64,000 nucleotides of DNA from an uncultured Gammaproteobacteria bacterium (GTDB lineage Bacteria > Patescibacteriota > Microgenomatia > UBA10105 > UBA927). A program made the translations under genes and the position numbers. Under the pieces are notes generated by a model that did no database searches, was not told the DNA's origin, and saw only the letters and a list, made by a program, of their open reading frames with translations. Below, piece after piece: positions 5,776 to 60,468 of the stretch; position 1 is the stretch's first letter; every line of letters starts with the position of its first letter. The DNA is taken from positions 128,132 through 192,131 of the forward strand of contig CAYMYO010000001.1 in NCBI GenBank assembly GCA_964394685.1, read 5' to 3'.

Positions 5776-6867
5776 ATGCGAATTGGCATTGATGCACGGC
5801 TTATCAATGAAACGGGAGTTGGACGGTATATCCGTAATTTACTTGCGGAATTAGCCCTTCTTGATACACCTCACACGTTTGTTGTGTTTTTGCTCCCTGA
5901 TGCCTATGATACGTTTCATCTGCCAGCTGGCAGATGGGAGAAGCGAATTGCTAATGTCCATTGGCATACGCTTAAAGAACAACTGGTTATGCCGAAGTTA
6001 TTTAACAAAGCACAAGTAGATCTTGTTCATATTCCATATTTCAATGTTCCTCTATTTATTCCAAAGCCATATATTGTGACAATTCACGATTTAACAGTAC
6101 TACACTACCAGACGGGAAAAGCTACCACACTGCCATATATATTATATGTTCTAAAATGGATTGGATATTATTTGGTTCTTCGTATTGGACTTGCAAGAGC
6201 AAAACACATCATTGCCGTGTCAAAGACAGTTCGTGATGATTTACAACAAAGTCTTGGAGTGCCGAAAGACAAGATAACCGTTACGTACGAAGGAGTAGAT
6301 AAAAGTATCAAGTATGAAAATACGAAATTAAAAATTCATCAACCGTATTTATTATATGTCGGGAATGCATACCCACATAAAAATGTTGAAATGCTCATTC
6401 GAGCTTTTGATACGTTTAAAAAAATACCAGAAGGAAAAGATTTCCACTTAGTACTTATCGGATCAGATACCATGTTTTATAAAAGGCTCCATAGGCTTGT
6501 TGAAACGCTACCATCAAAAGTCGCAATTCAGTTTATGGGGACAATTTCGGATGAAGATCTTGTCCATGCATATACGTATGCGCACGCGCTTGTCTTTCCT
6601 TCACTTTCTGAAGGATTTGGACTGCCGGCTCTTGAAGCTCTGTCTCTCGGATGCCCTGTTATTTGTTCTGATATTCCAATATTTCATGAGATATTAGGAA
6701 GCTCTGCGACCTATTTTAATCCGAAGTCCGTAGACTCACTTGTATCTGTTTTACGCAGCGTGTCGAAAAAAATGGAAATGCCAGATGTAAACGTATTAAA
6801 ACGATATTCATGGAATAAAATGGCAGCGCAAACACTCGCGATATATGAACGTAGCACTGGTGTATGA
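5776..6867 (+). CDS. Glycosyltransferase family 4.
   Basis: C-terminal FPSLSEGFGLPALEALSLGCPVICSDIP motif, the GT4 E-X7-E region. Confidence 0.8.
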   Translation: MRIGIDARLINETGVGRYIRNLLAELALLDTPHTFVVFLLPDAYDTFHLPAGRWEKRIANVHWHTLKEQLVMPKLFNKAQVDLVHIPYFNVPLFIPKPYIVTIHDLTVLHYQTGKATTLPYILYVLKWIGYYLVLRIGLARAKHIIAVSKTVRDDLQQSLGVPKDKITVTYEGVDKSIKYENTKLKIHQPYLLYVGNAYPHKNVEMLIRAFDTFKKIPEGKDFHLVLIGSDTMFYKRLHRLVETLPSKVAIQFMGTISDEDLVHAYTYAHALVFPSLSEGFGLPALEALSLGCPVICSDIPIFHEILGSSATYFNPKSVDSLVSVLRSVSKKMEMPDVNVLKRYSWNKMAAQTLAIYERSTGV

Positions 6868-9668: not shown

Positions 9669-11645
9669 ATGCCGCAAGAACTCAAAAAAATTATCATTAA
9701 TACAACAGTAACTCCAAAATCTGTAGAAAAAACTAATAAAAGATTCCCGTGGAAGTTTGTTATTATTCCACTTGTCATTATCCTCATCGTTTTTGTTGTC
9801 ATTGGCGTTATGCTCCTTCCTCTTCGAGGTGTTATAGCTAAATCGAAGGATCTTTCAACGTCCGCCCGCGTTACGATGGATGCAGTTAAATCGCAGGATC
9901 TTGAAAAAACAAAAGCAGGGCTTACCGAAACAAGGAGCAAGCTGGTGGAGCTAGAAACTGAATATAAAAAGGTATTACCTTTGAAGGTAATACCTTTTCT
10001 TGGAGCGTATATAATTGATGGAGAGCACGTCATCAAAGCCGGTTTTGCAGGCCTTACTGCAGGAGACAAAGCCATTGAGGCTATTGAACCCAATGCAGAT
10101 TTATTGGGACTTAAAGGAACAAAAAAAACGACGTTTCTTGAAGGAAGCGCAGAGGACAGGTTGCAGTTTGCAGTCAAAACCATGAGTGTTCTTATTCCAA
10201 AGATTAACGAAATGGCAACGAGTGTTGATACACTTCGGAAGGAAATATCCCAAATTGACCCAAAAAGATATCCAGAAAAAATTGGGAAAACTGTTATTCG
10301 TTCAAAACTCATATCAGGCATCGCAGTTATTGAAGAAACAGCAAACTTATTTGTGAATGCTCAACCGCTTCTTGTCAATCTTCCGTCGCTTCTTGGCGAG
10401 CCGAAAGAAAAGCGCTATCTAGTATTATTTCAAAACGATAAAGAACTTCGTTCAACAGGAGGCTTTATCACTGCATATGCGCAGTTTCGTATGGTGCGGG
10501 GCAAACCAGTGCTTGAAAAAGCAGATGATATTTACGCACTTGATGCGTCCATAGCAAAAAAATTTACCGCTCCACGGGAGATTCTCACTTTTCACAAGGG
10601 CGTATATAATCTCAATATCCGCGACAGCAATCTCTCACCTGACTACAAACTTTCAATGCAGAAGTTTGAAGAAATGTACACATATGCAAGTGGAAAGGAA
10701 AAAATTGACGGAATTATCGCAGTTGATACCCATGTTCTTGTTGAGGCATTAAAAATTTTAGGTCCGATGTACATTTACGGCAGAGAATTTAGTGCGGTTA
10801 TTGATAAACGGTGCGATTGTCCAAAGGCGGTATATGAACTGGAAGATTATTCTACAAGACCTGTTAATTATGTAAGGACCGCACGAAAAGATATTATAGG
10901 AGTCCTTCTCCAGCAAATTCTTCGTATGGCTTTGGGAGTATCCCCGTCAAAATATTGGGGAAATCTGTTCCAAATGCTCATTGCTGAGATTAATCAAAAA
11001 CATATCGTAGCCTATTTTCATGATGACGCGACTCAGAAAGCAGCAGAGAGTTTTAATTTGGCTGGTCGGATTATGACCGCAAGCGAATCCGCAGCGGTAC
11101 TTAAATATAAAGAGAATGACGGATGGGATTATCTGCATATAAATAACAGCAATATGGCTGGTGCTAAATCCAATATGTTTGTGTCAAGCAAGGTAATGAA
11201 AGATACAACAGTTAATGGTGATGGAACAATCACAACAAAGTTAACAATTGATTATAAAAATCCGTATCCGGGTTCTGACTGCGGACTGGAAAGCGGCGGA
11301 CTCTGCTTAAACGCACCGCTTCGTAATTGGGTGCGTGTGTATGCGCCGGTTGGAAGCAAGCTAACTGATAATAAAGGAGCAATATCTCCAAAAGACGGAA
11401 AGCCAACGAGCTTGGAAACATATGATAGTCTCGGAAAAACTGTATTTGAAGGATTTCTTATTGTTAATCCGATGGGGACGGCAAAATTAGAACTCACGTA
11501 TATAAGTCCTGTAAAACTACAAGGAACATATAAGTTACTTATTCAAAAACAACCAGGAACAAATGATGAAGAATATGCCATTAAACTCAATGGGAAAGAA
11601 CGAAAACGAGCACCACTGGTTACTGATACGGAATATATTTTCTAA
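9669..11645 (+). CDS. Hypothetical membrane-anchored, mostly extracytoplasmic protein (~660 aa).
   Basis: Single N-terminal TM helix (FVIIPLVIILIVFVVIGVMLL), then a coiled-coil-like stretch and a large soluble domain that includes a CDCPKAVYELEDY motif. No family is confidently recognised. The ORF opens at 9645. Confidence 0.5.
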   Translation: MPQELKKIIINTTVTPKSVEKTNKRFPWKFVIIPLVIILIVFVVIGVMLLPLRGVIAKSKDLSTSARVTMDAVKSQDLEKTKAGLTETRSKLVELETEYKKVLPLKVIPFLGAYIIDGEHVIKAGFAGLTAGDKAIEAIEPNADLLGLKGTKKTTFLEGSAEDRLQFAVKTMSVLIPKINEMATSVDTLRKEISQIDPKRYPEKIGKTVIRSKLISGIAVIEETANLFVNAQPLLVNLPSLLGEPKEKRYLVLFQNDKELRSTGGFITAYAQFRMVRGKPVLEKADDIYALDASIAKKFTAPREILTFHKGVYNLNIRDSNLSPDYKLSMQKFEEMYTYASGKEKIDGIIAVDTHVLVEALKILGPMYIYGREFSAVIDKRCDCPKAVYELEDYSTRPVNYVRTARKDIIGVLLQQILRMALGVSPSKYWGNLFQMLIAEINQKHIVAYFHDDATQKAAESFNLAGRIMTASESAAVLKYKENDGWDYLHINNSNMAGAKSNMFVSSKVMKDTTVNGDGTITTKLTIDYKNPYPGSDCGLESGGLCLNAPLRNWVRVYAPVGSKLTDNKGAISPKDGKPTSLETYDSLGKTVFEGFLIVNPMGTAKLELTYISPVKLQGTYKLLIQKQPGTNDEEYAIKLNGKERKRAPLVTDTEYIF

Positions 11646-34354: not shown

Positions 34355-35668
34355 ATGGCACGAGATCGAATTGTAACAGGAATAGATATTGGAACTTCAA
34401 AAATAACTACCCTCATTGCCAGCGTTAATGATGATAGTTCAATTCGAGTAATAGGTGTGAGCACTGTTGCCAGCCGCGGGCTTCGCAAAGGGCAGATAGT
34501 AAATATAGAAGAAGCCACATCAGTTATTTCACAATCATTGGAAGCGGCTGAGCGAATGGCGGGCACATCAGTAGCAAGTGCCTATCTATTAACAGGAGGC
34601 AATCACATTGCATCGCTTAACTCTCATGGGGTGGTCGCTGTTGCTGAACCGGATAAAGAAATTACGGATAATGATGTAAAACGAGTCATTGATGCAGCAA
34701 AAGCAATCTCACTTCCTTCTTCTCGCGAGATTCTCCATATTATTCCAAGAGGATATCTTGTTGATGGACAAGAAGGAATTGTAGACCCTGTAAATATGAC
34801 CGGTGTTCGATTGGAAGTTGATACACATCTCATTACCGGAGGATCAATTGCGATTAGAAATCTCTATAAATGTGTTGAAGAATTGGGTGTAGAAGTAGAG
34901 TCTGTTATTTTTGGCGGTCTTGCGTCTTCCTATGCAACTTTATCAGACACAGAGAAAGAATTAGGAGTAGTACTTGTTGATATTGGTGGAGGGACAACAG
35001 ATGTAGCCATCTATGTAGATGGGGCAGTGTCCTACTCCTCTGTTATTCCAGTTGGTGCAATTAATATTACGAAAGATCTCGCAGCGGGCTTGAGAATTTC
35101 ACTCGAAAGCGCTGAAAAAATTAAGCTAGCCTTAGGACAAGTACCCAAAAATCCAGTGCTATCGGAAGACGAAATATTAGACAAAAATGGAAAAAACCTG
35201 CCTGCCGGCAGGCAGGGTGATGAAATAGACGTATCAGATTTAATGCTTCCTGAAGAAATGAAAACCATTTCTAGAAAAACACTTGTTGAAGGAATCGTAA
35301 AACCACGGTTAAATGAAATTTTTTCACTTGTTGGACTTGAAATCAAAAAAAGCGGATTTGGCGGCATGACGCCATCAGGAATTGTTCTCACTGGCGGTGG
35401 AGCTTTATCAGTTGGAGCAGTAGAATCAGCGCGAAGAAACCTGGCTATGTCAGTTCATGTTGGAATTCCAAAAAATATTTCAGGGCTTATTGATGAAATA
35501 ACAACACCAGCATACGCAGCAAGTGTAGGACTGCTCCTTTATGGAATAAAAGCGGATAGACATATCAGCACTCCCCTGTTTGGTAATATTGGTAAGATTG
35601 GAGATAGATTTGCTGTGAAGGGTATTGCAGGGAAGGTGATAAATCTGATAAAGTCATTCTTACCCTAG
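34355..35668 (+). CDS. ftsA: Cell division protein FtsA.
   Basis: Actin-like ATPase, MARDRIVTGIDIGTSKITTLIAS... and VDIGGGTTDVAIY. It carries the perfect 20-bp palindrome at 35197-35216, which encodes LPAGRQ. Confidence 0.9.
   Translation: MARDRIVTGIDIGTSKITTLIASVNDDSSIRVIGVSTVASRGLRKGQIVNIEEATSVISQSLEAAERMAGTSVASAYLLTGGNHIASLNSHGVVAVAEPDKEITDNDVKRVIDAAKAISLPSSREILHIIPRGYLVDGQEGIVDPVNMTGVRLEVDTHLITGGSIAIRNLYKCVEELGVEVESVIFGGLASSYATLSDTEKELGVVLVDIGGGTTDVAIYVDGAVSYSSVIPVGAINITKDLAAGLRISLESAEKIKLALGQVPKNPVLSEDEILDKNGKNLPAGRQGDEIDVSDLMLPEEMKTISRKTLVEGIVKPRLNEIFSLVGLEIKKSGFGGMTPSGIVLTGGGALSVGAVESARRNLAMSVHVGIPKNISGLIDEITTPAYAASVGLLLYGIKADRHISTPLFGNIGKIGDRFAVKGIAGKVINLIKSFLP
35197..35216. repeat. 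Perfect 20-bp GC-rich palindrome CCTGCCTGCCGGCAGGCAGG (copy A), inside ftsA.
   Basis: Exact reverse-complement symmetry. It encodes LPAGRQ in the ftsA frame. GC-rich in a ~38% GC context. Confidence 0.9.
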
Positions 35669-35683
35669 AAATAATTACTTCTG

Positions 35684-35703
35684 CCTACCTGCCGGCAGGC
35701 AGG
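35684..35703. repeat. Palindrome copy B, CCTaCCTGCCGGCAGGCAGG (1 mismatch), in the ftsA-ftsZ intergenic spacer.
   Basis: 19/20 identity to copy A, which lies 487 bp upstream. The only strong hairpin in the 60-bp spacer. It is not followed by a U-tract. Confidence 0.85.
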
Positions 35704-35728
35704 TTCCTGTCCCTGAAGGAATACATAT

Positions 35729-36868
35729 ATGTTAATTAAGCCTGATATTGCACGGTTCGCAAAAATAAAAGTCGTTGGCCTCGGAGGCGGCGGAAGCAAT
35801 GCAGTAAACTCCATGATGCTCACAAACACCATTAAGGGTGTTGATTTTATTGCAGTGAACACTGACGCACAGGCGCTTCTCACAAATCAAGCACAAACAA
35901 AAGTACAAATCGGAGAAAATTTAACGCGCGGTCTTGGAGCCGGAGGTGATCCTGAAATAGGTCGACAAGCAGCTGAAGAATCAAGAGAAAAATTAAAAGA
36001 ATATTTACGGGATTGCGATATGGTTTTTATAACGTGCGGAGAAGGGGGTGGTACCGGCACCGGAGCAGCACCGATTATTGCTGAGATTGCCAAAGAACAG
36101 GGAGCACTCACTATTGCTGTGGTGACAAAACCGTTTCGATTTGAAGGAACGAGACGAATGATGACAGCTGAAGAAGGGATCATGAATTTAAAAAATAAAG
36201 TCGATACGCTTATTATTATTCCCAATCAACGGCTTTTGGAAGTTATCGATAAAAAAATGACGCTGATTGAGGCGTTCCGTGTAGCAGACTCAGTGCTTAC
36301 ACAGGGGGTTCAGGGAATTTCGGATCTTATTACCATGCCAGGGCTTATCAACGTTGACTTTGCAGACGTTCGAACGGTGATGACAAATGCCGGATCAGCC
36401 CTCATGGGAATGGGAACAGGAGTAGGGGAAAATAGAGCCGCAACGGCTGCCCGTACTGCGTTTACATCACCACTACTTGAATTATCTATTGAAGGAGCAA
36501 AAGGAGTACTCTTTAACATTATCGGTGGAAATGATTTGACCATGGCGGAAGTAGATGAAGCAGCAAAGCAAATAGCTGCACAAGTTGATCCTGATGCAAA
36601 TATTATTTTCGGAGCAACCATAGATGAATCAATGGTTGATCAAGTGAAAATAACGATTATCGCAACAGGATTTGATGAAACAAAAAGAAAACTTCGGGAG
36701 ATGACAGCCAATCGACAACAAACACAGACAACATTTGCGCAACCATTTATCCGTCAACCGGTTCAAACGCAAGCAAATGGTGATAAAACAGTGCTTCCTG
36801 TTGCTGAGGATATCCCACCAGAAGAAGACGAATTCGACATTCCCGCATTTCTTCGTCAAAGGAATTAA
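35729..36868 (+). CDS. ftsZ: Cell division protein FtsZ.
   Basis: KIKVVGLGGGGSNAVNSM and GGGTGTGAAPIIA tubulin signatures. Confidence 0.95.
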   Translation: MLIKPDIARFAKIKVVGLGGGGSNAVNSMMLTNTIKGVDFIAVNTDAQALLTNQAQTKVQIGENLTRGLGAGGDPEIGRQAAEESREKLKEYLRDCDMVFITCGEGGGTGTGAAPIIAEIAKEQGALTIAVVTKPFRFEGTRRMMTAEEGIMNLKNKVDTLIIIPNQRLLEVIDKKMTLIEAFRVADSVLTQGVQGISDLITMPGLINVDFADVRTVMTNAGSALMGMGTGVGENRAATAARTAFTSPLLELSIEGAKGVLFNIIGGNDLTMAEVDEAAKQIAAQVDPDANIIFGATIDESMVDQVKITIIATGFDETKRKLREMTANRQQTQTTFAQPFIRQPVQTQANGDKTVLPVAEDIPPEEDEFDIPAFLRQRN

Positions 36869-37494: not shown

Positions 37495-38325
37495 TTAAAT
37501 ACTTCTTGAATACGGTCCAAATGAACGAATTACGTAATCCCATAAGGCAGAAAGTGCTCCATGTTCTTTTCTCCTATAATGTTCATATAATGTCTTAGGC
37601 AGCCTTACTAATTCATAAATTTTAACCTTAATTGGAGCCATCCGTTCAACAAATAACATATGGTTACGTGCGAGATAGTATTGATGTGCAGCAGAACCAA
37701 CTCCAACAATCGCCGTATGATAATGCGTTATCCCTTTACGTGGAGTGGCTATTATAGGGAATCCAGCATGATGAGCTCGAACTGAATAATCGGCATCTTC
37801 GTAGTACATAAAATAAGGTTCATAAAAATAACCAATTTTAGCTACAACATCTTTGTGAATTGATAAACATGAACCAGATATATACTCTGGATTATTTTGA
37901 ATTGAGCTATTTTTTTCATTAACTATTGTTGTCCATCGTTTTTTATCAAAAATACCACCAAAAGGTCCTATGATTGATGGACGCATATGCTTAAGTGTTT
38001 TATTTAAGTCAGTTAATGCTTGCTTTGATAAAGACAAATCTTGATTAAGAATAGTTATCCATAAAGCTCCATTTTCAAAAGCTATTCTCATTCCAACATT
38101 CACTCCTCCACCAAAGCCACAATTTTTCTCGTTATTGATGGTAGTAATGTTTTCCTTTTTTATTTTTAATGGGGTTTTTATATCATTATTAATAAGTAAA
38201 AACTTTTGTCTCTTAAGACTTTTAAGAAGCTTTGATAATACAATTATATTTGGTTTAAATATTGGAATAATAAAATAATGAATCATATATTTATTATTTG
38301 ATAGTAACGTTTCTATTTTTATCAA
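37495..38325 (-). CDS. Glycosyltransferase family 2.
   Basis: N-terminal GT-A domain (...KNCGFGGGVNVGM...) with a DxD-like YEDAD motif. Minus strand, in the repeat-flanked cassette. Confidence 0.65.
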   Translation of the reverse strand: MIKIETLLSNNKYMIHYFIIPIFKPNIIVLSKLLKSLKRQKFLLINNDIKTPLKIKKENITTINNEKNCGFGGGVNVGMRIAFENGALWITILNQDLSLSKQALTDLNKTLKHMRPSIIGPFGGIFDKKRWTTIVNEKNSSIQNNPEYISGSCLSIHKDVVAKIGYFYEPYFMYYEDADYSVRAHHAGFPIIATPRKGITHYHTAIVGVGSAAHQYYLARNHMLFVERMAPIKVKIYELVRLPKTLYEHYRRKEHGALSALWDYVIRSFGPYSRSI

Positions 38326-38335
38326 GACCTGATTT

Positions 38336-39505
38336 CTATTTCATCATGTCTTCTATATATTTTTCTAATCTTATAGTTGCACTATCCCATGTCCAATAAG
38401 GTAAAATGGAATTTCTTGATTGTTTCGCGATTTTACCGTATAAAGAATGATCAGTTAGTAATATATTTACGGCTTTTGCAAGACTTCGTTCGTCTCTTTC
38501 AACCAATAAGCCATTTATTCCATCTGTCACAATATCTCTGTATCCACCTTCTTTAACAGCAATAACAGGTGTTCCGCATGCCATAGCTTCGAGTGCAGAT
38601 AACCCAAGAGTTTCTAGATGAGCGCCGCAAATAACAATTTTTGCTTTATTATATAAACTGACCATATCTTCATCAGGTACTCTAGATACAATCTTTAATG
38701 TAACCTTCTTACTTAAAGCATACTGTTCTAAATAGACTTTTCGATCTAAATTGATACCACCACTCGATATGATTAATTTTGGTCTTCCCTTTGTTTTTAA
38801 TAACGCAAGGGAGTCTATAATGAATTCGTGCCCTTTGTGAATAGATAAATTTCCGACGCTAAAGACATAATCCTCTTTACTTACTCCAAGATGTCTAAAT
38901 AGCTTCATATCAACACCAAGATGACAAATGGACGCATATACACCGTAAGCACGATAAACGGATTCCTTAGATGAGTACGAGTTAACCAAGATTTTATCCA
39001 TCTTTCTTGCGTTCTTAAGATCATTTTGTTTTCTCCAATTGTCCGACAGCCTAAGCAATATTGTTTGAATGCTACATCCTTTTTCTTTTAATGGGTTAAG
39101 GTTGTATTCATAATAAATTCTCCACGGTTCTTGGCAATAATATATAGACTTACATTTCAAATAATGACTTAGAAATGGAGTTTGAATATATGTATCGTGA
39201 GATACAAACACTAAATCATACTTTCGTTTGTTTATATCGTCAGCTATTTTTCTATGGATACTTTGAAGTTTTATAAATAAGTTATAATCCTCCTCTAAGC
39301 GTAACAGTGGTCCACCTTTTATAACAGATAATTTATTGACGTTATAAACGTATTTTTTTTTGAAGTAACTATTTTGAATTGTTGCATCACTTAATGTGTA
39401 GAGATCTAAGTTATATTTTAAAGTTAATCTCTTTGAAAATTCCTCTATCGTTTTTAGTCCACCTCCAGGTGGCAGATTATGATAAAACGCAATTTTTTTC
39501 TGCAT
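38336..39505 (-). CDS. Glycosyltransferase family 4.
   Basis: C-terminal ...GLSALEAMACGTPVIAVKEGG... motif. Minus strand. Confidence 0.8.
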   Translation of the reverse strand: MQKKIAFYHNLPPGGGLKTIEEFSKRLTLKYNLDLYTLSDATIQNSYFKKKYVYNVNKLSVIKGGPLLRLEEDYNLFIKLQSIHRKIADDINKRKYDLVFVSHDTYIQTPFLSHYLKCKSIYYCQEPWRIYYEYNLNPLKEKGCSIQTILLRLSDNWRKQNDLKNARKMDKILVNSYSSKESVYRAYGVYASICHLGVDMKLFRHLGVSKEDYVFSVGNLSIHKGHEFIIDSLALLKTKGRPKLIISSGGINLDRKVYLEQYALSKKVTLKIVSRVPDEDMVSLYNKAKIVICGAHLETLGLSALEAMACGTPVIAVKEGGYRDIVTDGINGLLVERDERSLAKAVNILLTDHSLYGKIAKQSRNSILPYWTWDSATIRLEKYIEDMMK

Positions 39506-39524
39506 AAATGATGTTAGGAATCGA

Positions 39525-40772
39525 TTACGATAATATCGTACGTCTATTTTCTAAGAAATATGCAATTCCCAGTATAGTAAATAATAGAAATTCACTAACT
39601 ACCGTTATATAACTTGAAGCTATATATCCATATTTTGGTATAAATAATAGATTTAAAATAAAATTCAATATTAAGGAAACGCTAAGACCAATGATAATTA
39701 TGGAAATTTTCTTATTTATTAAGAAATAGTAATATATAATATTATCGATACAAAGGAGTGGAACAGTAAAGATAAGAATTCTAAGGCTGCTAGCACTGTT
39801 TACAAATTCTTTTCCAGCAAAAATATTTACAACAATTGGAGCGAAGATATAGCCCATAATCACCACTATAAGTGAAAATATAATTGAAATCCAAAGCGAG
39901 CTCCGTAATAGATAATTAAATTGTGTTTTATTATTCTTTGAGCTAGCTAATAGTGGATACACACTTGCCATATAGAATGCCCAAAGTATAATGATATTTT
40001 CAAATAGTTTATATGAGAAGCTATATATTCCCACATCTGAGGCTGACTTCATTACCGACAGCATAAGGGTATCAACCTTAAAGCTTAAAGTTGCCAATAA
40101 CGATGCCACACCAATAGGGAAGGATACTTTAATTATCTTCTTAATTAAATCCAACGATGGAACAGTGGATAAGTGAAAATATGTTGGCGTTAAATATATG
40201 TTCAATAATGTGTTAACTATATTTCCAATTAAAACAGATAAAATAATTGCGTTTAACCCCAAATGCAACAAAATTACTATAATAATTGCAAGTATAGTTA
40301 CAATTCGATTAATTACGTCTAACAATGCTACCAGATCAAGCTTAACTTGCGCCTGAAGTACAGAGGCTCCATAACCATTTATCTGCCCAACTCCTACAGC
40401 AATAGAACCAATAAGAATTGTCATTTTAATTGTTTGTGAGTATGGAAAAAAGATTAATACTATAAGTGATAACAAGACTGAAATAATCGTAAAGATTACT
40501 TTCAGGGAAAAATAGGTGGATTTAAGTTTATCTGACGTTACAGAATTACCAGATAAATCTCGAACGAGAGTAAGTTGAAGTCCAAAATCAGCAAATATAC
40601 CAAAAAAAGCCAGATATGCGAAAACAAGATTATATACACCATATTGGGCAACACCTAAATATCTAGTTAAAAGACCTACCATCAGCAAACCAAGGACGAC
40701 AGTTGTAGCTTTTGCGAATATTTGGCTAGATGTATTAATGAATATCCGTCTGAATATCTGATTTTTTTCCAT
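39525..40772 (-). CDS. wzx: Polysaccharide/O-unit flippase, MOP superfamily (Wzx-like).
   Basis: 415 aa with ~12 TM helices and the N-terminal ...FAKATTVVLGLLMVGLLTRYLG... typical of polysaccharide biosynthesis (Polysacc_synt) flippases. Minus strand. Confidence 0.7.
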   Translation of the reverse strand: MEKNQIFRRIFINTSSQIFAKATTVVLGLLMVGLLTRYLGVAQYGVYNLVFAYLAFFGIFADFGLQLTLVRDLSGNSVTSDKLKSTYFSLKVIFTIISVLLSLIVLIFFPYSQTIKMTILIGSIAVGVGQINGYGASVLQAQVKLDLVALLDVINRIVTILAIIIVILLHLGLNAIILSVLIGNIVNTLLNIYLTPTYFHLSTVPSLDLIKKIIKVSFPIGVASLLATLSFKVDTLMLSVMKSASDVGIYSFSYKLFENIIILWAFYMASVYPLLASSKNNKTQFNYLLRSSLWISIIFSLIVVIMGYIFAPIVVNIFAGKEFVNSASSLRILIFTVPLLCIDNIIYYYFLINKKISIIIIGLSVSLILNFILNLLFIPKYGYIASSYITVVSEFLLFTILGIAYFLENRRTILS

Positions 40773-40931
40773 GTTAATGTGCTTAGAGTATCATATTTTT
40801 CAGCTGGATGGTATTAATTGCTATAAATTACTTTAAAGAAAGTGAATTGGATTTATTGCCAATTACTTCAATCAATTTGCTTCAGACGTAATTCTCTGTT
40901 ATCTTTTAGGTGAAGGCTTAAAAATGTATTG

Positions 40932-40994
40932 ATTCTCATTGATTGCCTTGGAGAAGATTGAAGCTAAGTGATAACCCTGTCTTATAAATTCCCG
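40932..40994. repeat. Copy 2 of the ~63-bp imperfect direct repeat (with partner at 37432-37494).
   Basis: Core ccttggAgaagattgaagctaaGTgataAccctgtcTtataaatTcccgc. It lies 3' of the minus-strand GT87 gene and 5' of the minus-strand wzx-GT4-GT2 cassette. Confidence 0.6.
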
Positions 40995-41020
40995 CATTCT
41001 TACGACAAAGAAATTAACAT

Positions 41021-42142
41021 TTACAAAAAAATTCCGCTTCTTCTCAGATTCCTTTTTATGGCAAGCAGCCATAAAATGAATGCTCCGATAAAGGGATGGG
41101 AGAACATCAGCATATGGGAATTTGTGAATGCTTCGGGAGTACGAATGTGAAATGACGTTAATGCGTATACAAGAACAAGCAATAATTTTTCTATCGTACT
41201 TGTTGTTGTGGCCCATAAGACAATCAAAAGCGGAATAAGAATAACGTAATGGTGAAACCATGAAAAACTGGAAAGAAACAGGAGAACTGAGAATATTAAT
41301 CCGAAATACGATAAGGATTTATTTTTTGATTTAAGAAATAAAAATAGCGAAGTAGTTGTAAAAATAAGTCTCAACAATAAACGGATGTCTGAGGAAAAGT
41401 GTAAACGCAATAAAAAACTATTGAGCGATTGATCAAAGTAGGCTCTCTCTCCTCCTTGAAGAAAAAGATTTCCGCCGATTACGCCGAAATACGAAGTTAC
41501 GATGGCAGGCGTAAAAATCAATAGTGTCAATCCCAGACCAACAAGAATAGTGATGACAAAACTCAGAATCGTTTTCCATTTCTTTTCCTTTATAAAAAAG
41601 AGAATGAGGAAACACGGAAAAATTTTGATAAGCGTTGCTATTCCAAGAAGAATCCCTGGCAACACGTCCCTGTTTTTTCGGAAAAAGTAAAAAGACGCGG
41701 TCAGCAGCAAAAGAATAACAAGATTGATCTGCCCGAGTGTCAGCGTAAATTTTACCGGAAAATATTGTATAAAACAACTTGAAAGAAGTAAAAATGTAGT
41801 TAACTTTTTTGTTTTCGTAAAAAGCATTCCGGTTAGGAGCCAGACAGCGATAAACAGACTGGCGAGAGAAGACAAAAGGAAAACAAAAGCAGTGATTGTT
41901 TTGGGAAAAAATGTCAACATGAGAAAGAAAGGCAAGCTTGTTGGCGGATAATTAAATGGAATTTGAGAGATATGTGGTTCATACACCTTTCCATGAACTA
42001 AAGCGGTTTTGGCGGCATTGATATAAACGCTCAAATCAACAAAATTATCCGAAAGATAAACAAAATATAGCTTATAAAGTTGCTGACCTAAGGCAGTAAC
42101 AAATATCAGAAAAAGAAAAATGTTAACGAAATTTTTCTTCAT
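41021..42142 (-). CDS. GT-C-like integral membrane glycosyltransferase, DUF2029/GT87-like.
   Basis: 373 aa, ~11 TM helices, with an N-terminal ...DLSVYINAAKTALVHGKVYEP..FNYPPTSLPFF... motif characteristic of DUF2029/GT87 mannosyltransferase-like proteins. Confidence 0.5.
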   Translation of the reverse strand: MKKNFVNIFLFLIFVTALGQQLYKLYFVYLSDNFVDLSVYINAAKTALVHGKVYEPHISQIPFNYPPTSLPFFLMLTFFPKTITAFVFLLSSLASLFIAVWLLTGMLFTKTKKLTTFLLLSSCFIQYFPVKFTLTLGQINLVILLLLTASFYFFRKNRDVLPGILLGIATLIKIFPCFLILFFIKEKKWKTILSFVITILVGLGLTLLIFTPAIVTSYFGVIGGNLFLQGGERAYFDQSLNSFLLRLHFSSDIRLLLRLIFTTTSLFLFLKSKNKSLSYFGLIFSVLLFLSSFSWFHHYVILIPLLIVLWATTTSTIEKLLLVLVYALTSFHIRTPEAFTNSHMLMFSHPFIGAFILWLLAIKRNLRRSGIFL

Positions 42143-42203
42143 AGTGTCTCTCTTTTTTATGATATCATAAGAACAACTAAATACAGTTTTTTATTGTAAA
42201 AAT

Positions 42204-49294: not shown

Positions 49295-50452
49295 ATGACG
49301 CCTCGTTTATATTTTTTAGGAAGAACCCCTGAGCTTTCTATTGCTGAACTTTCCTCATTTGTATCTTCCGTTATCTCTATTCAGCCAGATATTGTTCAAA
49401 TAGATGGTCCATGTATTGCGAATGGATCGACTCTCAGTGATGTAGATAGCATAAACCTGTTGGGCGGAGTGGTAAAAATCGCAGAGATACTTGAGCATAC
49501 TGACACTCTTGATTCGACGCGCCTCATTACTCATTTGAAACAATCAAAAAATAAAAAGGCATTTGCAATTAGCGGCTATGGCGTCGATAGAAAAACTATA
49601 ACAACATTGGATCAAGAGATAAAAGATCTCTTCAGTTCGTCACATATTGCATCTCGATTTTTACTCCCACACAACGGAAGCGTTGTTTCATCAGTAGCTA
49701 TCGTAAAAGAGCACATTGAAGAGCTTGTAATTGTTAAGGATGCATCCGGATATATCATCGGCAAAACAACAGCAATTCAACCATTTGAGCAATGGAACCA
49801 GCGTGATTATGAGCGTCCGTTTTCGGATCCCAAAGCTGGTATGCTTCCTCCGAAAGTTGCACGCATGGCGGTAAATATGGGACTGGGATCAGACAGTGTT
49901 GGAAAAACTCTGTTAGATCCATTTTGCGGCATGGGTACAATTTGTGCTGAAGCAGCCATTCGGGGGGTGAATGCAATTGGAAGTGATATTGATTACAAGT
50001 CTGTTGAAAAAGCGAAAAAAAACATGTCGTGGCTGCTTTCTCGATATAAACTTGCCTCATCAGTACGGATATTTCAGGCTGATGCAACGCACATAGATGA
50101 ACATATTGATAAAAGTTCAATTGATACCATAGTAACGGAACCACTGCTCGGTCCTACAAAGCTGGGAGAGGAAAGCATTCATGACGCCCGTGAAATACAA
50201 AATATAGTTAAAGGCCTCGAAAAATTATATATAGGATGTTTTCGATCTTGGACGAATATACTTAAAAATAACGGAGTTGTGGTCATTGCTCTGCCATCGT
50301 TTACCATGGGTAAAACTGTCTATAGTGTGAAAAAAGTTGTTGACACGTGTGAAACGCTTGGGTATACTAAGTTGCTTGGACCAATAACGTACGGAAGGCC
50401 GCAAGCAGTAGTACGAAGAAATTTTTATTTATTTAAATATGGCACACGTTAA
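49295..50452 (+). CDS. Class I SAM-dependent methyltransferase, putative RNA methylase (UPF0020/THUMP-like).
   Basis: Motif I ...LLDPFCGMGTICAEAAIRGVNAIGSDID... and an N-terminal ~170-aa THUMP-like region. It is inserted between rplU and rpmA, where Firmicutes encode the Prp protease. Confidence 0.5.
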   Translation: MTPRLYFLGRTPELSIAELSSFVSSVISIQPDIVQIDGPCIANGSTLSDVDSINLLGGVVKIAEILEHTDTLDSTRLITHLKQSKNKKAFAISGYGVDRKTITTLDQEIKDLFSSSHIASRFLLPHNGSVVSSVAIVKEHIEELVIVKDASGYIIGKTTAIQPFEQWNQRDYERPFSDPKAGMLPPKVARMAVNMGLGSDSVGKTLLDPFCGMGTICAEAAIRGVNAIGSDIDYKSVEKAKKNMSWLLSRYKLASSVRIFQADATHIDEHIDKSSIDTIVTEPLLGPTKLGEESIHDAREIQNIVKGLEKLYIGCFRSWTNILKNNGVVVIALPSFTMGKTVYSVKKVVDTCETLGYTKLLGPITYGRPQAVVRRNFYLFKYGTR

Positions 50453-50729
50453 AGCAGGAGGAGTAGCAAAAGGAAATAAAGATTCAGTTTCAAAGCGGTT
50501 AGGCGTGAAAGTATACGGCGCACAGTTTGCAAAAGCAGGAAGCATCATCATTCGTCAAAAAGGTACAAAAGTGTATCCGGGACTCAATGTCGCGATGGGA
50601 AAAGACTTCACCATTTCTTCTCGTATAGCTGGAATTGTGCAATTTGGCGTAAAACAAGGTAAAAAAATGGTATCTGTCATGCCTACCGGCAGACAGGTCT
50701 TGCCCGCGCAAAGAGGTGGCAATGGCTGA
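50439..50729 (+). CDS. rpmA: 50S ribosomal protein L27, with no N-terminal propeptide and a 16-aa C-terminal extension.
   Basis: MAHVKAGGVAKGNKDSVSKRLGVKVYGAQ... The C-terminal tail ...MPTGRQVLPAQRGGNG is partly encoded by a degenerate copy of the 20-bp palindrome at 50678-50697. Confidence 0.85.
   Translation: MAHVKAGGVAKGNKDSVSKRLGVKVYGAQFAKAGSIIIRQKGTKVYPGLNVAMGKDFTISSRIAGIVQFGVKQGKKMVSVMPTGRQVLPAQRGGNG
50678..50697. repeat. Degenerate palindrome copy D, CaTGCCTaCCGGCAGaCAGG (17/20), at the 3' end of rpmA.
   Basis: Encodes MPTGRQ in the L27 C-terminal extension. Confidence 0.5.
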
Positions 50730-52463: not shown

Positions 52464-53534
52464 ATGGTCATAGGTGTTGATGCAGGAGCTATTTGTGAAA
52501 CAGATGACCGGCTGAAAGTCGGCGTGTATCGCGTGACGCTTGAGCTACTGAAACACCTTTCCCGAATTGATTCTGTCAATACATATCGGTTGTACAGTTT
52601 CGCTCCTATTCCCTCAGACATCATGAAAAATTTCGGCACTAACATGGTTAATATCTGTCTTTCGCCATCGTTTGGTTATATGAAATTTCGTTTACCATTG
52701 AAACTCACGGTAGAACCCGTCGATATTTTTTTGGGCGTAGCGCAAGCAATTCCGAATGGCGCTAAAAACGCAATTGGTTTTATTTATGACCTAGGTTTTT
52801 TGCATCACCCTGAAGTCTATGGGGCGCAGGCACACGTACTTGCCAAGCAAACAGAAACGCTTGTTGCGAAATCAGCGCATATCGTGACGATATCAAAGAC
52901 GACAAAAGATGATATCATAAAAACGTATAACGTATCTCCTTCGAACATAACGGTGTTGTATCCGGGAATAAGTGATGTCTTTAGAAAAAATAAAGAGATA
53001 ATACATCACCCGGTTCCGTATTTTTTGATGGTCGGACTCATAAAACCAAGTAAAAATATCCCTCTTGCAATTTGTGCATTTTCACAATTTCTGAAATCTA
53101 CAAAAAAACACTACGATCTTATTATTATCGGCGGAAATACCGGTGTTGATACACAGTCAACCGATAGGGTTCATATTCTTGGACGTCTTCCTGATAGGGA
53201 AGTGGCAAAATGGTATAAAGGAGCTACAGCACTACTAAGTCTTTCGAAAACTGAGGGTTTTTGTCTTCCGGCTGCAGAAAGTTTAGCTAGCGGATGTCCA
53301 GTGATTTATGTTAACGGCGGAGCGCTTCAGGAAATAGTCGGAAATGCTGGTATTGGCGTAAACAATCAAGAGGGGATAGTCCATGGCATGTTGAGATTAT
53401 CGGGTGGTACAATACGAAATGAATACGTAAAAAGATGTATTGATCGGTCTAAATTGTATTCATGGAATAAATTTTCCCGTGTCATCCTGAACTCCTGCCT
53501 TGCCGGCAGGCAGGTGTTTCAGGATCCATTATAA
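52464..53534 (+). CDS. Glycosyltransferase family 4.
   Basis: ...LSKTEGFCLPAAESLASGCPVIYVNGG... GGGAGG RBS 5 nt upstream. Its 3' end ...NSCLAGRQVFQDPL is encoded by the palindrome copy at 53494-53514. Confidence 0.75.
   Translation: MVIGVDAGAICETDDRLKVGVYRVTLELLKHLSRIDSVNTYRLYSFAPIPSDIMKNFGTNMVNICLSPSFGYMKFRLPLKLTVEPVDIFLGVAQAIPNGAKNAIGFIYDLGFLHHPEVYGAQAHVLAKQTETLVAKSAHIVTISKTTKDDIIKTYNVSPSNITVLYPGISDVFRKNKEIIHHPVPYFLMVGLIKPSKNIPLAICAFSQFLKSTKKHYDLIIIGGNTGVDTQSTDRVHILGRLPDREVAKWYKGATALLSLSKTEGFCLPAAESLASGCPVIYVNGGALQEIVGNAGIGVNNQEGIVHGMLRLSGGTIRNEYVKRCIDRSKLYSWNKFSRVILNSCLAGRQVFQDPL
53494..53514. repeat. Palindrome copy C, CCTGCCtTGCCGGCAGGCAGG (1-nt insertion), at the 3' end of the GT4 gene 52464-53534.
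   Basis: Encodes CLAGRQ in the GT4 frame. Confidence 0.8.
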
Positions 53535-53550
53535 TCGTTATAAAATGCGA

Positions 53551-53581
53551 GATGCTGATCCGCCAGCTGGCGGACAGCATG
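53551..53581. repeat. 31-nt interrupted palindrome/hairpin GATGCTGATCCGCCAGCTGGCGGACAGCATG between the GT4 and GT2 genes.
   Basis: 6-bp outer stem, 2x2 internal loop, 5-bp inner stem and AGCU loop. The core CCGCCAGCTGGCGG is related to CTGCCAGCTGGCAG at 60103-60116. Confidence 0.6.
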
Positions 53582-53598
53582 ACAATAAATAAAAATTT

Positions 53599-54345
53599 AT
53601 GATATCTGCAGTAATTTTAATTCATAACAATGAGGATTCAATTCAAAAAACACTAGAAAGTGTTTCATGGTGTGATGAACGGATTGTTGTTGATGATAAT
53701 TCGACGGATAAAACAAGAGAGATAGCAAAAAATGTAGGAGCCATTGTGTATCAGCATGCACTGAATGATAACTTTGCAGAACAAAGGAATTTTGGATTGG
53801 AAAAAGCAAAGGAAAAATGGATTCTGTTCGTAGATTCGGATGAGATAGTGAATTCCAACCTTCGAGACGAGATGCTGAAATTAATTCAGCATGACAAGGG
53901 GATTCAGGGGTATTATATAAAACGGAAGGATATATTGTTTGGTAGGGAACTACGATATGGAGAGACAGCACATGTTAAGTTGTTACGACTTGCAAAGAAA
54001 AACGCGGGCAAATGGGCAAGAGCCGTTCATGAAACATGGAACGTAAATGGACCGGTCGCCTCTTTAACCACTCCCCTTTTACATTACCCGCATTCGACAA
54101 TCTCAGAATTTCTCACTCAAATTAATCGGTATACTTCACTCAACGCCCGTGAGTTTTATTATGAAGGGAAACGTGTTTCCGCGTGGCAAATAATTGTGTA
54201 TCCAAAAGCAAAATTTATTCAAAACTATATCGTAAGACTTGGATTTCTTGATGGAGCAGCGGGATTCGTTGTTGCTATGATGATGAGCTTCCATTCATTT
54301 TTGACTCGCGGTAAGCTATGGGAGTTGCAGCAAAAGAAAATCTAA
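53599..54345 (+). CDS. Glycosyltransferase family 2.
   Basis: MISAVILIHNNEDSIQKTLESV...VVDDNSTDKT...FVDSDE (DxD). Confidence 0.75.
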   Translation: MISAVILIHNNEDSIQKTLESVSWCDERIVVDDNSTDKTREIAKNVGAIVYQHALNDNFAEQRNFGLEKAKEKWILFVDSDEIVNSNLRDEMLKLIQHDKGIQGYYIKRKDILFGRELRYGETAHVKLLRLAKKNAGKWARAVHETWNVNGPVASLTTPLLHYPHSTISEFLTQINRYTSLNAREFYYEGKRVSAWQIIVYPKAKFIQNYIVRLGFLDGAAGFVVAMMMSFHSFLTRGKLWELQQKKI

Positions 54346-57696: not shown

Positions 57697-60468
57697 TCAT
57701 TGTGGTCGCAACTTATTCAGAATTTCTCCCAGTTTTTTCATTTCTTCTCCGTATCTTCCCCAATCTCCCTCCTTTTGGGCACGGATGGCGGCATCGTAGG
57801 TCTCGGCGGCCTGTTTGCTGAGATTATCCGAAGGAGCTATTACACTTGCCGGCTTGGCTTGTTGGCCGGTGCCGGTGCCAAAGAGTCTAGCTAGCCCTGC
57901 CTCCAATGTCTCCTCCATAACTATCTTGTTTTCGTAGGCGACAATAACGCGTTTGAGCTCGGGGATTTTACCTGTATCTGCCTTCAGATAGAGCGGCCGA
58001 ACATAAAGGAGCGACTCCTCAATTGGGATAACCAAAAGCGATCCTTGAATGACTTGTGACCCGCCCTGATCCCATAAAGAAATTTGACGGCTGACTTCTG
58101 CGTCTTGATTGATCCGGCTAATGACTTGTTTAGGACCGAACACCAATGTATCCTTGGGGAAGCGGTAGACAACTAGTTTGCCGTACTGCTGCCCGTCATT
58201 TCTGGCTACCATCCAAGCAGAAAGATTGTCTTTGGCTCTTGGTGTAAACGGCAGCATCAGAATATATTCCTCGGTTTTCTCGCCCGGAAGCTTCATAATC
58301 ATGTGGCGGGGTGTCATTGCGGGCACCTTGCTGTCAGCTTGCTGTTCACCTTCTTGGGCGATGGCCGGTATTTCCCACAGGTCTTCTTTGTTGTAAAAGA
58401 TTTGCGGATCATCCATATGGTATGTGGTATAGACAGCAGTTTGCAGGGAAAAGATGTCTTCTGGATAGCGCAGGTGCGGCACAAGATTTTTGGGCAGGTC
58501 GGAAAGCGGACGGAACATGTTGGGGAACATTTTGGTGTAGGTTTTGATAATCGGATCTTCGGAATCAGCTTGATACAAATTCACCGATCCGTCATATGCG
58601 TCCACCACTGCCTTGACTGAGTTTCTGATGTAATTAATCCTTCGACTTCGCTCAGGACTACCGTTTAGTGGTAATGGCTGGGAATACGGGTATCGGTCGG
58701 TTGAAGTATACGCATCGACGATCCAATAGAGTTTGCCTTCGGCAACCACGAGATATGGGTCCCGATCGTATGTCAAAAATGGCGCAACTTTCGCCACTCT
58801 CTCTTTTATATTCCGGTTGTAGAGAATACGGCTTTCGCCGGTTATATCGCCGGATAAAAACATTTTGAGTGAGGCAAAACGAAATGCATAGAGGAGCCTA
58901 CGCACGAGCGAATTGAGTTCCACGCCACCTTTTCCTGCATAGGTGGTGTACACATTCTCTTCCCCTTTGGGATAATCAAATTCTTTCGATTTGGTTTTGG
59001 TAATGACATAGTCGTTGAGAATCTCACCGTAGTAAATTTCCGGTCTGGTTATAGCGAGTTCTTTCACTTCCGATTTGGGGGGCAAATCTTTGACAAAAAG
59101 GACCGGCAAGCCTTCCGGAGTCACCTGATTTACCGGTCCGGCGGCAATGCCATAGCCGTGGGTAAATGTCAATCGTTCGTTAATCCATGCTTTGTTAGGA
59201 AGACTGTCGGAAGCCAGTTCCCTTGGGGAAAGCATAACCTGTCGTACTTCTCCATCTATGGTATAGCGGTCGTTATCCACGTTTGCAAACTCGTAGTAGG
59301 TTCTAATCTCTTGTATTTGCGAAAAAGTGGAAAGCAGCGGCGCTCTGTCCCAAAGCCTGACATTTTTAATAGTAAGATTATTGGCGGCAATGTCAACGCT
59401 TGTAATGGGTTTATCCGCGGCGATTTCCCGTTCTTCAATTTTATCCAGTCCATATGCCTTACGGGTAGCTTCGATATTATGGGTAATAAACGGCGTCTCT
59501 TTGGTAAGTTCATTGGGAGCAACGACTAATTTTTGAAAGACGCTTGGGACTATGCCGGAAACAAGTCCTACCACAACAGTGAGGGAGATCGCGCCCACGA
59601 GTGGTGAAATGTTTCCACTTATGCCATAAAACAGGGCCAGAATGGCGGAAATCCCATAGACAAAAACGGAAATTTTTATGATCGGGATCATTACGTTTGC
59701 ATCAGTAAACGCCGCGCCAAATACTGGCCCGCTTTGGGCGGTGAGGAGGTTATAGAGCGAAAGATAGGTACTGAGGGAGACCGTGGCAAGAAAAAGCGCT
59801 AAAAGGATGCCGATATGCAATCTGGCGTGTTGGTCCGCTTGCACTGAGCTTGTCGAATGTGTATTTGTATGTTTTACTAATTTAATGGGTAATTTGAACT
59901 TCCCCAAAAGAGCAGAGAGATTTAGGCTGCCGCGAAGAAAATAGATAGCACCGCTTATCATAAGCGACAATAAAACAAGAAATCGCAGGAGGCCCAAGCC
60001 CAGAGTGTAGACTGGAAGGGAAAATACGTAAAAGCTTATATCACGGCCAAACAGTGGATCGGTTTGGCCAAAGGGGGTGGCGGATAAGAATTTTAAGACA
60101 TCCTGCCAGCTGGCAGCCGCGACAAGGCCGATAAAAAAAGATACGGCTAGACAAATAGCAATACCAAATTTTTTAACTATCCGATCATTCAGACTCAAAG
60201 GTTGGCCAATGAGAGCTTCGGGGATAGCCAACATCCAGGGAATTTTTGAACGCATTGCAACCAGAAAGTTCGTCAGAAGAAAGGCGGCGGCAAAAAAGCC
60301 AACGGTAAGACCAAGAATGACTTTTGTACTGAGTGATTTGATGAAGATATCAGTAAAGCCAACTTCAGAAAACCACCACCAGTCAGTAACAAACGCAACA
60401 ATACTCGAGAAAAAGATAAAAAACGCAGCTACTATACCTATGAATGCCCAGGAAAATATTTTATTCAT
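57697..60468 (-). CDS. UPF0182 family large membrane protein.
   Basis: ~920 aa. N-terminal polytopic region with a ...FVTDWWWFSEVGF... motif, then a large extracytoplasmic domain (COG1615-like). The ORF is open to 60534; the start is placed at 60468 (MNKIFSW) to avoid overlapping the divergent ATPase gene. GC ~50%. Confidence 0.6.
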   Translation of the reverse strand: MNKIFSWAFIGIVAAFFIFFSSIVAFVTDWWWFSEVGFTDIFIKSLSTKVILGLTVGFFAAAFLLTNFLVAMRSKIPWMLAIPEALIGQPLSLNDRIVKKFGIAICLAVSFFIGLVAAASWQDVLKFLSATPFGQTDPLFGRDISFYVFSLPVYTLGLGLLRFLVLLSLMISGAIYFLRGSLNLSALLGKFKLPIKLVKHTNTHSTSSVQADQHARLHIGILLALFLATVSLSTYLSLYNLLTAQSGPVFGAAFTDANVMIPIIKISVFVYGISAILALFYGISGNISPLVGAISLTVVVGLVSGIVPSVFQKLVVAPNELTKETPFITHNIEATRKAYGLDKIEEREIAADKPITSVDIAANNLTIKNVRLWDRAPLLSTFSQIQEIRTYYEFANVDNDRYTIDGEVRQVMLSPRELASDSLPNKAWINERLTFTHGYGIAAGPVNQVTPEGLPVLFVKDLPPKSEVKELAITRPEIYYGEILNDYVITKTKSKEFDYPKGEENVYTTYAGKGGVELNSLVRRLLYAFRFASLKMFLSGDITGESRILYNRNIKERVAKVAPFLTYDRDPYLVVAEGKLYWIVDAYTSTDRYPYSQPLPLNGSPERSRRINYIRNSVKAVVDAYDGSVNLYQADSEDPIIKTYTKMFPNMFRPLSDLPKNLVPHLRYPEDIFSLQTAVYTTYHMDDPQIFYNKEDLWEIPAIAQEGEQQADSKVPAMTPRHMIMKLPGEKTEEYILMLPFTPRAKDNLSAWMVARNDGQQYGKLVVYRFPKDTLVFGPKQVISRINQDAEVSRQISLWDQGGSQVIQGSLLVIPIEESLLYVRPLYLKADTGKIPELKRVIVAYENKIVMEETLEAGLARLFGTGTGQQAKPASVIAPSDNLSKQAAETYDAAIRAQKEGDWGRYGEEMKKLGEILNKLRPQ

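Follow-up and report, generated by a model that had tools for sequence, protein, structure and literature searches.

The 64,000-nucleotide stretch of contig CAYMYO010000001.1 analysed here (positions 128,132–192,131; hereafter, the window) carries several copies of a GC-rich, perfectly palindromic 20-mer, CCTGCCTGCCGGCAGGCAGG, which we call P. It consists of (CCTG)2CC followed by its complement. We find that P is not lineage-specific, because bacteria of about ten phyla and also phages share the identical 20-mer, and that new copies are clean additions of 20–21 bp, without a target-site duplication or a fixed target motif. P is probably a cosmopolitan, ultra-short (20–21 bp) selfish hairpin that inserts discretely and then decays, being either mobilized in trans or propagated by template switching; it is non-autonomous, because it has no coding capacity. 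We class it as a miniature palindromic insertion of the same kind as the repetitive extragenic palindromic (REP) sequences and the Rickettsia palindromic elements (RPEs), but is unusual in its size, perfect symmetry and cross-phylum identity.

Copies of P in the window

The window has a GC content of around 39%, and the names of its homologues indicate the Microgenomates/Gottesmanbacteria lineage of the Patescibacteria (Candidate Phyla Radiation, CPR). Pfam identified FtsA, FtsZ, L27, ParB and GT4 glycosyltransferases among its genes. The copies of P, and the genes that contain or flank them, are as follows.

35197–35216: exact P (20/20) inside ftsA, in the hypervariable FtsA loop, encoding LPAGRQ (mismatch search)
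35684–35703: 19/20 copy in the ftsA–ftsZ spacer (mismatch search)
50678–50697: copy with three mismatches at the 3′ end of rpmA (mismatch search)
50679–50699: the same rpmA copy, delimited as a decayed insertion of 21 nt, ATGCCTACCGGCAGACAGGTC, with parB about 25 nt downstream
53494–53514: 21-nt version of P with an extra T, CCTGCCTTGCCGGCAGGCAGG, in the GT4 C-terminal tail (fuzzy search)
4003–4024: strongly decayed P-like palindrome, CCCGCCTGCCGGACGGGCAGG, in the first GT4 gene, encoding PPAGRAG
34355–35668: FtsA, with the peptide KNLPAGRQGD (Pfam and translation)
35729–36868: FtsZ (Pfam)
50439–50729: L27 (rpmA), with the peptide MPTGRQV (Pfam and translation)
52464–53534: GT4, with the peptide SCLAGRQV (Pfam and translation)
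53481–53527: host hairpin H1, GTCATCCTGAAC..GTTTCAGGATC, in the last GT4 codons, with a nested P copy (−23.8 kcal/mol, z −4.2)

An original prediction, made from the sequence of the window alone, had placed copies at 35197, 35684, 50678 and 53494; all four were recovered, and its assignments of FtsA, FtsZ, L27 and GT4 were borne out by Pfam and by the translations. Its claim that the 20-mer recurs beyond chance also holds, because 100 dinucleotide-preserving shuffles of the window gave no match at up to three mismatches. A fifth copy, which it had put at 4005, is too degenerate to be recovered by the search; it reads PPAGRAG in the shared frame, and the two units of an 11-bp direct repeat, GTATCAAGTAT (3985–3995 and 4027–4037), stand on either side of it, so that we regard it as a plausible P-like copy that is weak on its own. 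The window thus holds three near-perfect and two decayed copies in 64 kb; most 8-kb loci elsewhere hold one.

Four of the five window copies lie within open reading frames (ORFs), and all of the genic copies share a single reading frame, x-P-A-G-R-x. The proposal that P inserts in-frame therefore stands only as a description of these copies: the 20 bp of the element are not divisible by three, so that a copy fixed in a gene represents a net gain of 21 nt or an event compensated in some other way, and the in-frame state is an outcome of selection. The ftsA copy is effectively a 21-nt insertion (A + P) behind an A-run, and its hairpin (−15.5 kcal/mol) falls within the ftsA mRNA. Two successive strong hairpins follow GT4 (−23.8 and −22 kcal/mol; z −4.2 and −5.1). 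In the window, the extra peptide segments in FtsA, L27 and two GT4 proteins, and the stable hairpins, are side effects of P and not demonstrated functions.

New copies are clean insertions

Comparisons of filled and empty sites define what is added when a copy of P appears. In three of the collected loci (L037, L106 and L083; loci are labelled L plus a number), a duplicated 5′ fragment of a tRNA lies upstream of a small GIY-YIG (pseudo)gene, which is followed by the intact tRNA, and the sole difference between the fragment and its intact counterpart is the 20 bp of P, without any duplication. In a fourth tRNA fragment (L030), 21 nt stand in place of 1. The same holds for protein-coding genes. 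Between the FtsA sisters L135 (filled) and L140 (empty), which share 95% amino-acid identity and a four-fold-site identity of 0.79, the difference is a clean 21-nt indel, GAAAAATC[CCTGCTTGCCGGCAGGCAGGA]AAAAGC. Target-site duplications, which the original prediction had suggested looking for, were absent both from such clean pairs and from the flanks of other copies.

The 3′ end of rpmA documents an insertion followed by decay. In most relatives this end encodes ...VSVLPA*, the empty site reading GTC followed by CTGCCCGCGTAA (L240, L245 and L246), and this bond is interrupted by 21 inserted nucleotides in the window, L241 and L243. The L243 copy still matches P at 19 of 20 positions (CTGCCTGCTGGCAGGCAGGAC); those of the window and L241 share a derived G>A change and have decayed further. 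In the window, the insertion gives L27 the tail TGRQVLPA, and the C-terminal extension that had been pointed out in this protein is indeed absent from most relatives. Separately, the TAA stop codon of the relatives is CAA in the window (50709–50711), which adds six further residues (QRGGNG), and the extended reading frame (50709–50729) overlaps the start of parB, the ATG of which lies at about 50722.

Other copies have entered existing secondary structures. Hairpin H1 holds the GT4 copy at 53494 in its loop, and excising the 21 nt of this copy restores GTCATCCTGAACT joined directly to TGTTTCAGGATCC, an uninterrupted arrangement that is present in a gammaproteobacterial metagenome-assembled genome (MAG; L035) and in a viral contig (L208). 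P is nested in the centre of older P copies in L042 and L018, and the spacer copy occupies the loop of a conserved helix (CTTC...CTGCC..GAAGG) that holds the ftsZ ribosome-binding site. This spacer site has 19/20 identity to P in the window, is decayed in L202 and L125–L128, and has no palindrome in L122–L124. An attenuator formed by the ftsA and spacer copies, 487 bp apart, had been proposed; this idea was not upheld, because relatives possess a single copy, a decayed copy or no copy, and the sense strand lacks a terminator-like tail. Taken together, orthologous sites present an age spectrum of perfect, one-mismatch and heavily decayed copies that is typical of mobile DNA.

Identical copies across phyla and phages

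To place these copies in a wider context, we scanned one genome per species in the Genome Taxonomy Database (GTDB; 596 Gb) for the exact 20-mer. It was found in at least 120 stretches of these species-representative genomes, where about 0.5 would be expected by chance; the contigs that carry it are mostly 31–50% GC, which makes the chance expectation lower still. Carriers span about ten phyla, including many classes of Patescibacteria. They include the cultured Bacteroidota Winogradskyella echinorum, Flagellimonas yonaguniensis, Longitalea luteola, Flavivirga sp., Aquiflexum lacus, Agriterribacter humi and Aestuariivivens sediminis, as well as Omnitrophota, Planctomycetota, Verrucomicrobiota, Elusimicrobia, Ignavibacteria, Thermodesulfovibrionales, Desulfobacterota, Bdellovibrionales, Chloroflexi and MAGs labelled Gammaproteobacteria. 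A further 35 viral stretches with P were found in IMG/VR, and one phage contig has at least six copies.

The sequences on either side of P differ from locus to locus and are unrelated. An unbiased search for 14-mers common to at least 4 of 121 unrelated sequences returned variants of P, a second palindrome family (TCCGCC-AGCT/AAA/TTT-GGCGGA) and two A/T-rich 14-mers from four loci each, and nothing else. The original prediction, which knew of no equivalent for this kind of genome, had therefore understated the range of the element. Literature searches for the P sequences and for the peptides they encode found nothing relevant; searching by concept gave only REP sequences, RPEs and mitochondrial GC clusters or hairpin elements as analogues.

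Target preference

Flank statistics, drawn from 123–166 exact copies, revealed neither a target-site duplication nor a dominant flanking k-mer, the flanking 3-mers being at best around threefold enriched. The position immediately before P is A in 41% of copies and T in 9%, and an A...T pair brackets 27%. Flanking inverted repeats of at least 5 bp accompany 15 copies, against 4 expected (maximum of 9 in 200 shuffles). Direct repeats flank 21 copies, against 7.5 expected; these are variable and offset, and often belong to tandem 'word' repeats of 7–9 nt. Across all copies, CCTGCC/GGCAGG is only about 2.6-fold enriched in the flanks, and on this basis we rejected microhomology as a general requirement. 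P prefers contexts in which an A-tract meets a T-tract, the loops or centres of existing hairpins (other P copies included) and short stretches similar to CCTGCC, the terminal sequence of P itself.

Placement in genes

Most copies outside the window avoid genes. Across phyla, just 18% of 125 copies fall in the interior of an ORF that encodes 150 amino acids or more, compared with 69% of random positions in the same loci; the remaining 82% (31% of random positions) are not ORF-internal. The credible copies in long ORFs are almost all in the LPAGRQ frame, the only frame without cysteine, and their hosts elsewhere are FtsK, ScpB, GatB, an RmlB-like dehydratase, a PMT-type transferase and a BNR protein. 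In the window, the loop that holds the ftsA copy is hypervariable and lineage-expanded, and solved FtsA structures have a gap where it aligns; the L27 copy forms the C-terminal extension and the GT4 copy falls in a variable C-terminal tail, so that orthologue alignments agree with the expectation that insertion points fall in variable loops or termini. Evidently, frameshifting copies have been purged, and the survivors are intergenic, at gene ends, or 21-nt in-frame LPAGRQ insertions in variable loops and tails. In other lineages, the FtsA loop holds other GC-rich, repeat-derived inserts, such as TSSFAKASSFTKVTADRSEDKTADE (L138 1212–1385 and L140 3790–3933), and it therefore appears to be a general sink for repeat elements.

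Relation to known elements

REP sequences and the mosaic elements built from them (bacterial interspersed mosaic elements, BIMEs) are palindromic stem-loops that are thought to be mobilized by REP-associated tyrosine transposases (RAYTs) of the HUH class (Di Nocera et al. 2013, PMC3733652; RepRanger 2025, PMC12306157). Like P, they are short (20–40 bp), GC-rich and free of target duplications, and movement in trans is presumed for both. Their many copies, like most of the P copies outside the window, stand at gene ends or between genes, with occasional in-frame genic copies. REP superfamilies are, however, defined by an unpaired GTAG or CGTC tetranucleotide tag at one end (PMC3733652). P has no such tag: GTAG adjoins 3 of 166 exact copies, and no 4-mer adjoins more than 8. 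Moreover, REP families are confined to species or genera, whereas the P 20-mer is shared by about ten phyla and phages, its copy density per genome is apparently modest, and no RAYT was seen in the loci scanned.

The original prediction had likened P to RPEs. The filled and empty sites and the placement in loops and tails support this, because RPEs are also palindromic repeats fixed in-frame in essential ORFs, where they add peptide to surface or variable regions. By contrast, RPEs are around 100–150 bp and restricted to Rickettsia, whereas P insertions are 20–21 bp, cosmopolitan and elsewhere mostly intergenic, so that length, range and position set the two apart. Mobile GC clusters and hairpin elements of fungal and sponge mitochondria (PMC4478555, PMC2800124) share with P the character of GC-rich palindromic mini-elements in AT-rich genomes that are intergenic, occasionally in-frame within genes, prone to nesting and without a known dedicated enzyme; they differ in compartment, host and sequence, are around 30–60 bp and, in some classes, generate short target duplications. 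IS200/IS605 elements and palindrome-associated transposable elements (PATEs) resemble P in the lack of target duplication and in hairpin-based recognition, and an affinity of the IS200/IS605 type for single-stranded or hairpin DNA would fit the targeting of loops by P. Yet IS200/IS605 elements insert 3′ of a fixed target of 4–5 nt and have two different subterminal hairpins, whereas P, a single palindrome of 20 bp, lacks a fixed target. Miniature inverted-repeat transposable elements (MITEs) have terminal inverted repeats, a target-site duplication of fixed length and more than 50 bp; P is shorter and leaves no duplication in clean filled/empty pairs. P is thus REP/RPE-like in its behaviour, yet fails the defining tests of REP, RPE, MITE and IS200 elements.

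A different comparison is with parS (TGTTNCACGTGAAACA) and DNA uptake sequences, which are also identical short palindromes in distant phyla and are tolerated in suitable genic frames or regions; P further resembles parS in its proximity to parB in several lineages. Unlike parS, P arises by insertion and not by point mutation, and is also found in pseudo-tRNAs, phage intergenic regions and hairpin loops. We rejected identity with parS, because P has no similarity to TGTTNCACGTGAAACA and neither the window nor the parB loci contain a parS-like site at up to three mismatches. A terminator module was likewise rejected, a T-run standing beside P in 17% of copies and beside 22% of random positions; among the window copies, no sense-strand terminator was found, and only the antisense side of the ftsA copy qualifies. 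Nor is P a known RNA family: in Rfam 15, the gathering threshold was reached only by two window tRNAs. Last, a full-length parent transposon with P-like ends was rejected, because the multi-copy phage contig L225 lacks a transposase and no transposase family recurs in the 155 loci described below. In L225, P lies inside larger intergenic repeats around structural genes (SU10 adaptor).

Mechanism and alternative explanations

Because insertion leaves no duplication, shows an affinity for hairpin loops and palindrome centres, and produces nested copies, the events would take place on single-stranded or extruded DNA. One possible route is a trans-acting, structure- or hairpin-specific enzyme working on single-stranded or cruciform DNA; candidates are an HUH enzyme of the REP/RAYT or IS200 type, or the small GIY-YIG nucleases that neighbour P, which might create the break. 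On a second possible route, replication template switching or break repair would copy an existing P. Phages and other mobile DNA would then carry P between phyla. The mechanism is open to experiment, since the carriers include several cultured Bacteroidota.

Several observations weigh against P being a mobile selfish hairpin. No mobilizing gene was found among the scanned window proteins, which have cell-wall, division, glycosylation and transport functions; a RAYT (Y1 HUH transposase) was likewise absent from these proteins, and neither this family nor any other transposase family recurs in an all-against-all clustering of ORFs from 155 P-bearing loci. For the 20-mer to be identical across phyla, a trans factor would have to be very conserved or the mechanism independent of the host, and neither was identified. 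CCTGCC/CAGG microhomology pre-exists at three window sites, which fits a contribution of microhomology to copying, and fits local palindrome formation as well. Exact-protein look-ups with FtsA, FtsZ and GT2 revealed no presence/absence polymorphism in populations, returning only 100%-identical sibling Logan contigs.

The remaining difficulty concerns the ftsA junction (GGAAAAAA, then P, then NNGATGA). P matches 20/20 here in the window, L202 and L250, and 19/20 in L251/L252, although identity at four-fold sites is 0.58 between the window and L202 and only 0.23–0.30, which is saturated, towards L250/L251. Relatives that are closer to the window than L250 have clean, empty-looking ftsA sites. 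At a second FtsA site, L135 and L136 are filled and their sisters L140 and L144 are empty. Conservation of P despite four-fold saturation is not predicted by neutral decay after a single insertion, and implies either re-insertion at a hot spot or a sequence held by selection or conversion. Re-occupation of a hot spot fits the patchy distribution and the apparent youth of the ftsA-site copies; selection or conversion fits the proximity to parB and the presence of P in FtsA, FtsK and ScpB. The nucleotide conservation of this site offers a concrete test between selfish re-insertion and a cis-function near division and segregation genes.

The second of these options leads to the alternative, which we consider rather unlikely, that P is a functional cis-element (a binding site for a conserved factor, or a structured RNA or DNA signal) that is kept by selection in the manner of parS, its genic copies being tolerated or exploited, for example in division and segregation loci. 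A protein-binding or restriction-like site had been raised in the original prediction, and the nucleotide-level conservation at ftsA, which is repeated in L135/L136, lends this some support. Consistent with such a role, the 20-mer is identical across phyla, its hosts include FtsA, FtsK and ScpB, and no more than 100 nt separate P from parB in L001, L048 and L230 and, at the rpmA–parB junction, in the window/L241/L243 lineage, against about 0.01–0.5 expected. A selected cis-element would not, however, account for clean insertions into dead tRNA fragments and the loops of other hairpins, for free decay at the L27 site and in the ftsA–ftsZ spacer, or for a patchy occurrence among close relatives with clean empty sites. 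Nor does P keep a constant position relative to genes, belong to an Rfam family, resemble parS or show terminator-tail enrichment.

It is improbable, in our view, that there is no mobility at all and that palindromes form in situ, by snap-back or template switching (around CCGG or AGCT centres) combined with CCTG/CAGG slippage from seeds such as CCTGCC, with intrastrand correction keeping them perfect. The composition of P from (CCTG)2CC and its complement would suit this process, as would the common local flanking duplications and the native arms present at the L27 end (GTCCTGCC / GGCAGGAC) and in the spacer (CTGCC). Left unexplained are an identical 20-mer in at least 120 unrelated genomes with unrelated flanks, and the clean 20-bp insertions at tRNA sites without microhomology; in addition, the flank enrichment of CCTGCC is slight, and the empty sites of the tRNA and FtsA L135/L140 pairs contain no half-site.

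An assembly, adapter or chimera artefact, or chance recurrence, can be dismissed although carriers are mostly MAGs, because P is present in cultured isolates and long-read chromosomes, essential genes that contain it stay in frame across it, relatives from independent projects carry decayed copies at orthologous sites and none of the 100 shuffles gave a match.

Genes near P

Apart from phage structural proteins, the only ORF families that recur in the 155 loci are small GIY-YIG nucleases, ParB and 23S_rRNA_IVP. Small GIY-YIG genes, found in 9 of 121 sequences searched and in 7 of the 155 loci by clustering, mostly lie less than 150 nt from P (median 0); they and parB are unexpectedly frequent neighbours. 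GIY-YIG (pseudo)genes also sit inside tRNA genes with a duplicated 5′ tRNA fragment upstream, a layout that resembles that of a free-standing homing endonuclease. The GIY-YIG/tRNA loci are as follows.

L037: 2090–2480
L106: 3680–4061
L030: 3617–3787
L083: 4404–4562
L085: Agriterribacter humi (cultured), in which P lies in the D-loop of a tRNA-Arg(TCT)-like copy downstream of the GIY-YIG gene

Genes for the four-helix-bundle protein 23S_rRNA_IVP lie near P in L050 (3300–3800), L108 and L209. In L050, P is around 20 nt upstream of this gene, within GAGTGATC tandem repeats.

Companion palindromes and other features of the window

The window also contains palindromes that are related to P in size or design.

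53559–53574: palindrome P2, TCCGCCAGCTGGCGGA, in the GT4–GT2 spacer, with an outer stem ATGCTG/CAGCAT (53552–53581)
5917–5936: perfect 20-bp palindrome P3, CATCTGCCAGCTGGCAGATG, in a GT4 gene, encoding HLPAGRW
60099–60117: P3-like copy, CATCCTGCCAGCTGGCAGC, inside the UPF0182 gene, minus strand, encoding AASWQD

The P2 core, CCGCCAGCTGGCGG, recurs in 8 of 121 unrelated sequences, and 27 TCCGCC-loop-GGCGGA hairpins occur in the 1.7 Mb of collected DNA. The P3 type, CTGCCAGCTGGCAG, combines P-like arms with a P2-like centre, AGCT. Another hairpin, ATGCTGAAATTAATTCAGCAT (53872–53892), lies in-frame within the GT2 gene, where it encodes MLKLIQHD, and has a sister, GTCATGCTGAACTTGATTCAGCAT, in a Saccharibacteria MAG (L032); this pair suggests that there may be further cosmopolitan hairpin families.

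It is possible, and we propose it only tentatively, that P, P2 (TCCGCCAGCTGGCGGA), P3 (CTGCCAGCTGGCAG) and the ATCCTGAA/ATGCTGAA hairpins are members of a class of cosmopolitan 'nano-elements' that has not been described before. At 20–21 bp, these would be smaller than any other mobile DNA known, spreading across phyla and phages independently of the host or by a universally available mechanism, targeting hairpin loops and A/T tracts and re-occupying hot spots in essential genes, or alternatively being kept identical by a sequence-specific drive. If so, they would set a new lower size limit for mobile DNA and constitute a general, unrecognized source of peptide insertions in the proteins of uncultured bacteria. 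A non-coding sequence of 20 bp would stay identical in about ten phyla and in phages while editing FtsA, FtsK, ScpB, GatB and L27 in-frame, which raises the question of which enzyme or replication process moves P so far. The same class would explain recurrent low-complexity inserts of the 'LPAGRQ' type and spurious small ORFs in metagenome annotations.

Other features of the window and the collected loci are independent of these palindromes or of different design. The helix in the ftsA–ftsZ spacer (TTCCTTC ... CTGCCCC ... GAAGGAA; window 35669–35728) is kept clade-wide (L122–L147) and pairs the Shine–Dalgarno region of ftsZ; it may be a translational control element that is independent of P. 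A 32-bp AT-rich, near-perfect palindrome with 15-bp arms, AAAAGGTATTACCTTTGAAGGTAATACCTTTT, lies at 9967–9998 inside the DUF4012 gene. In a Bacteroidetes MAG (L112 1890–2220), an array of a 22-bp palindrome, GGGACAGGTCGCGACCTGTCCC, with a spacing of around 44 bp, adjoins a P copy. Finally, a low-GC block (0.30–0.34) at around 37500–42150 contains minus-strand glycan genes (GT2, GT4, Polysacc_synt flippase and GT87). It is not at the matching place in the close relative L202, in which FtsZ is followed by other genes, and it may be a variable glycosylation island.

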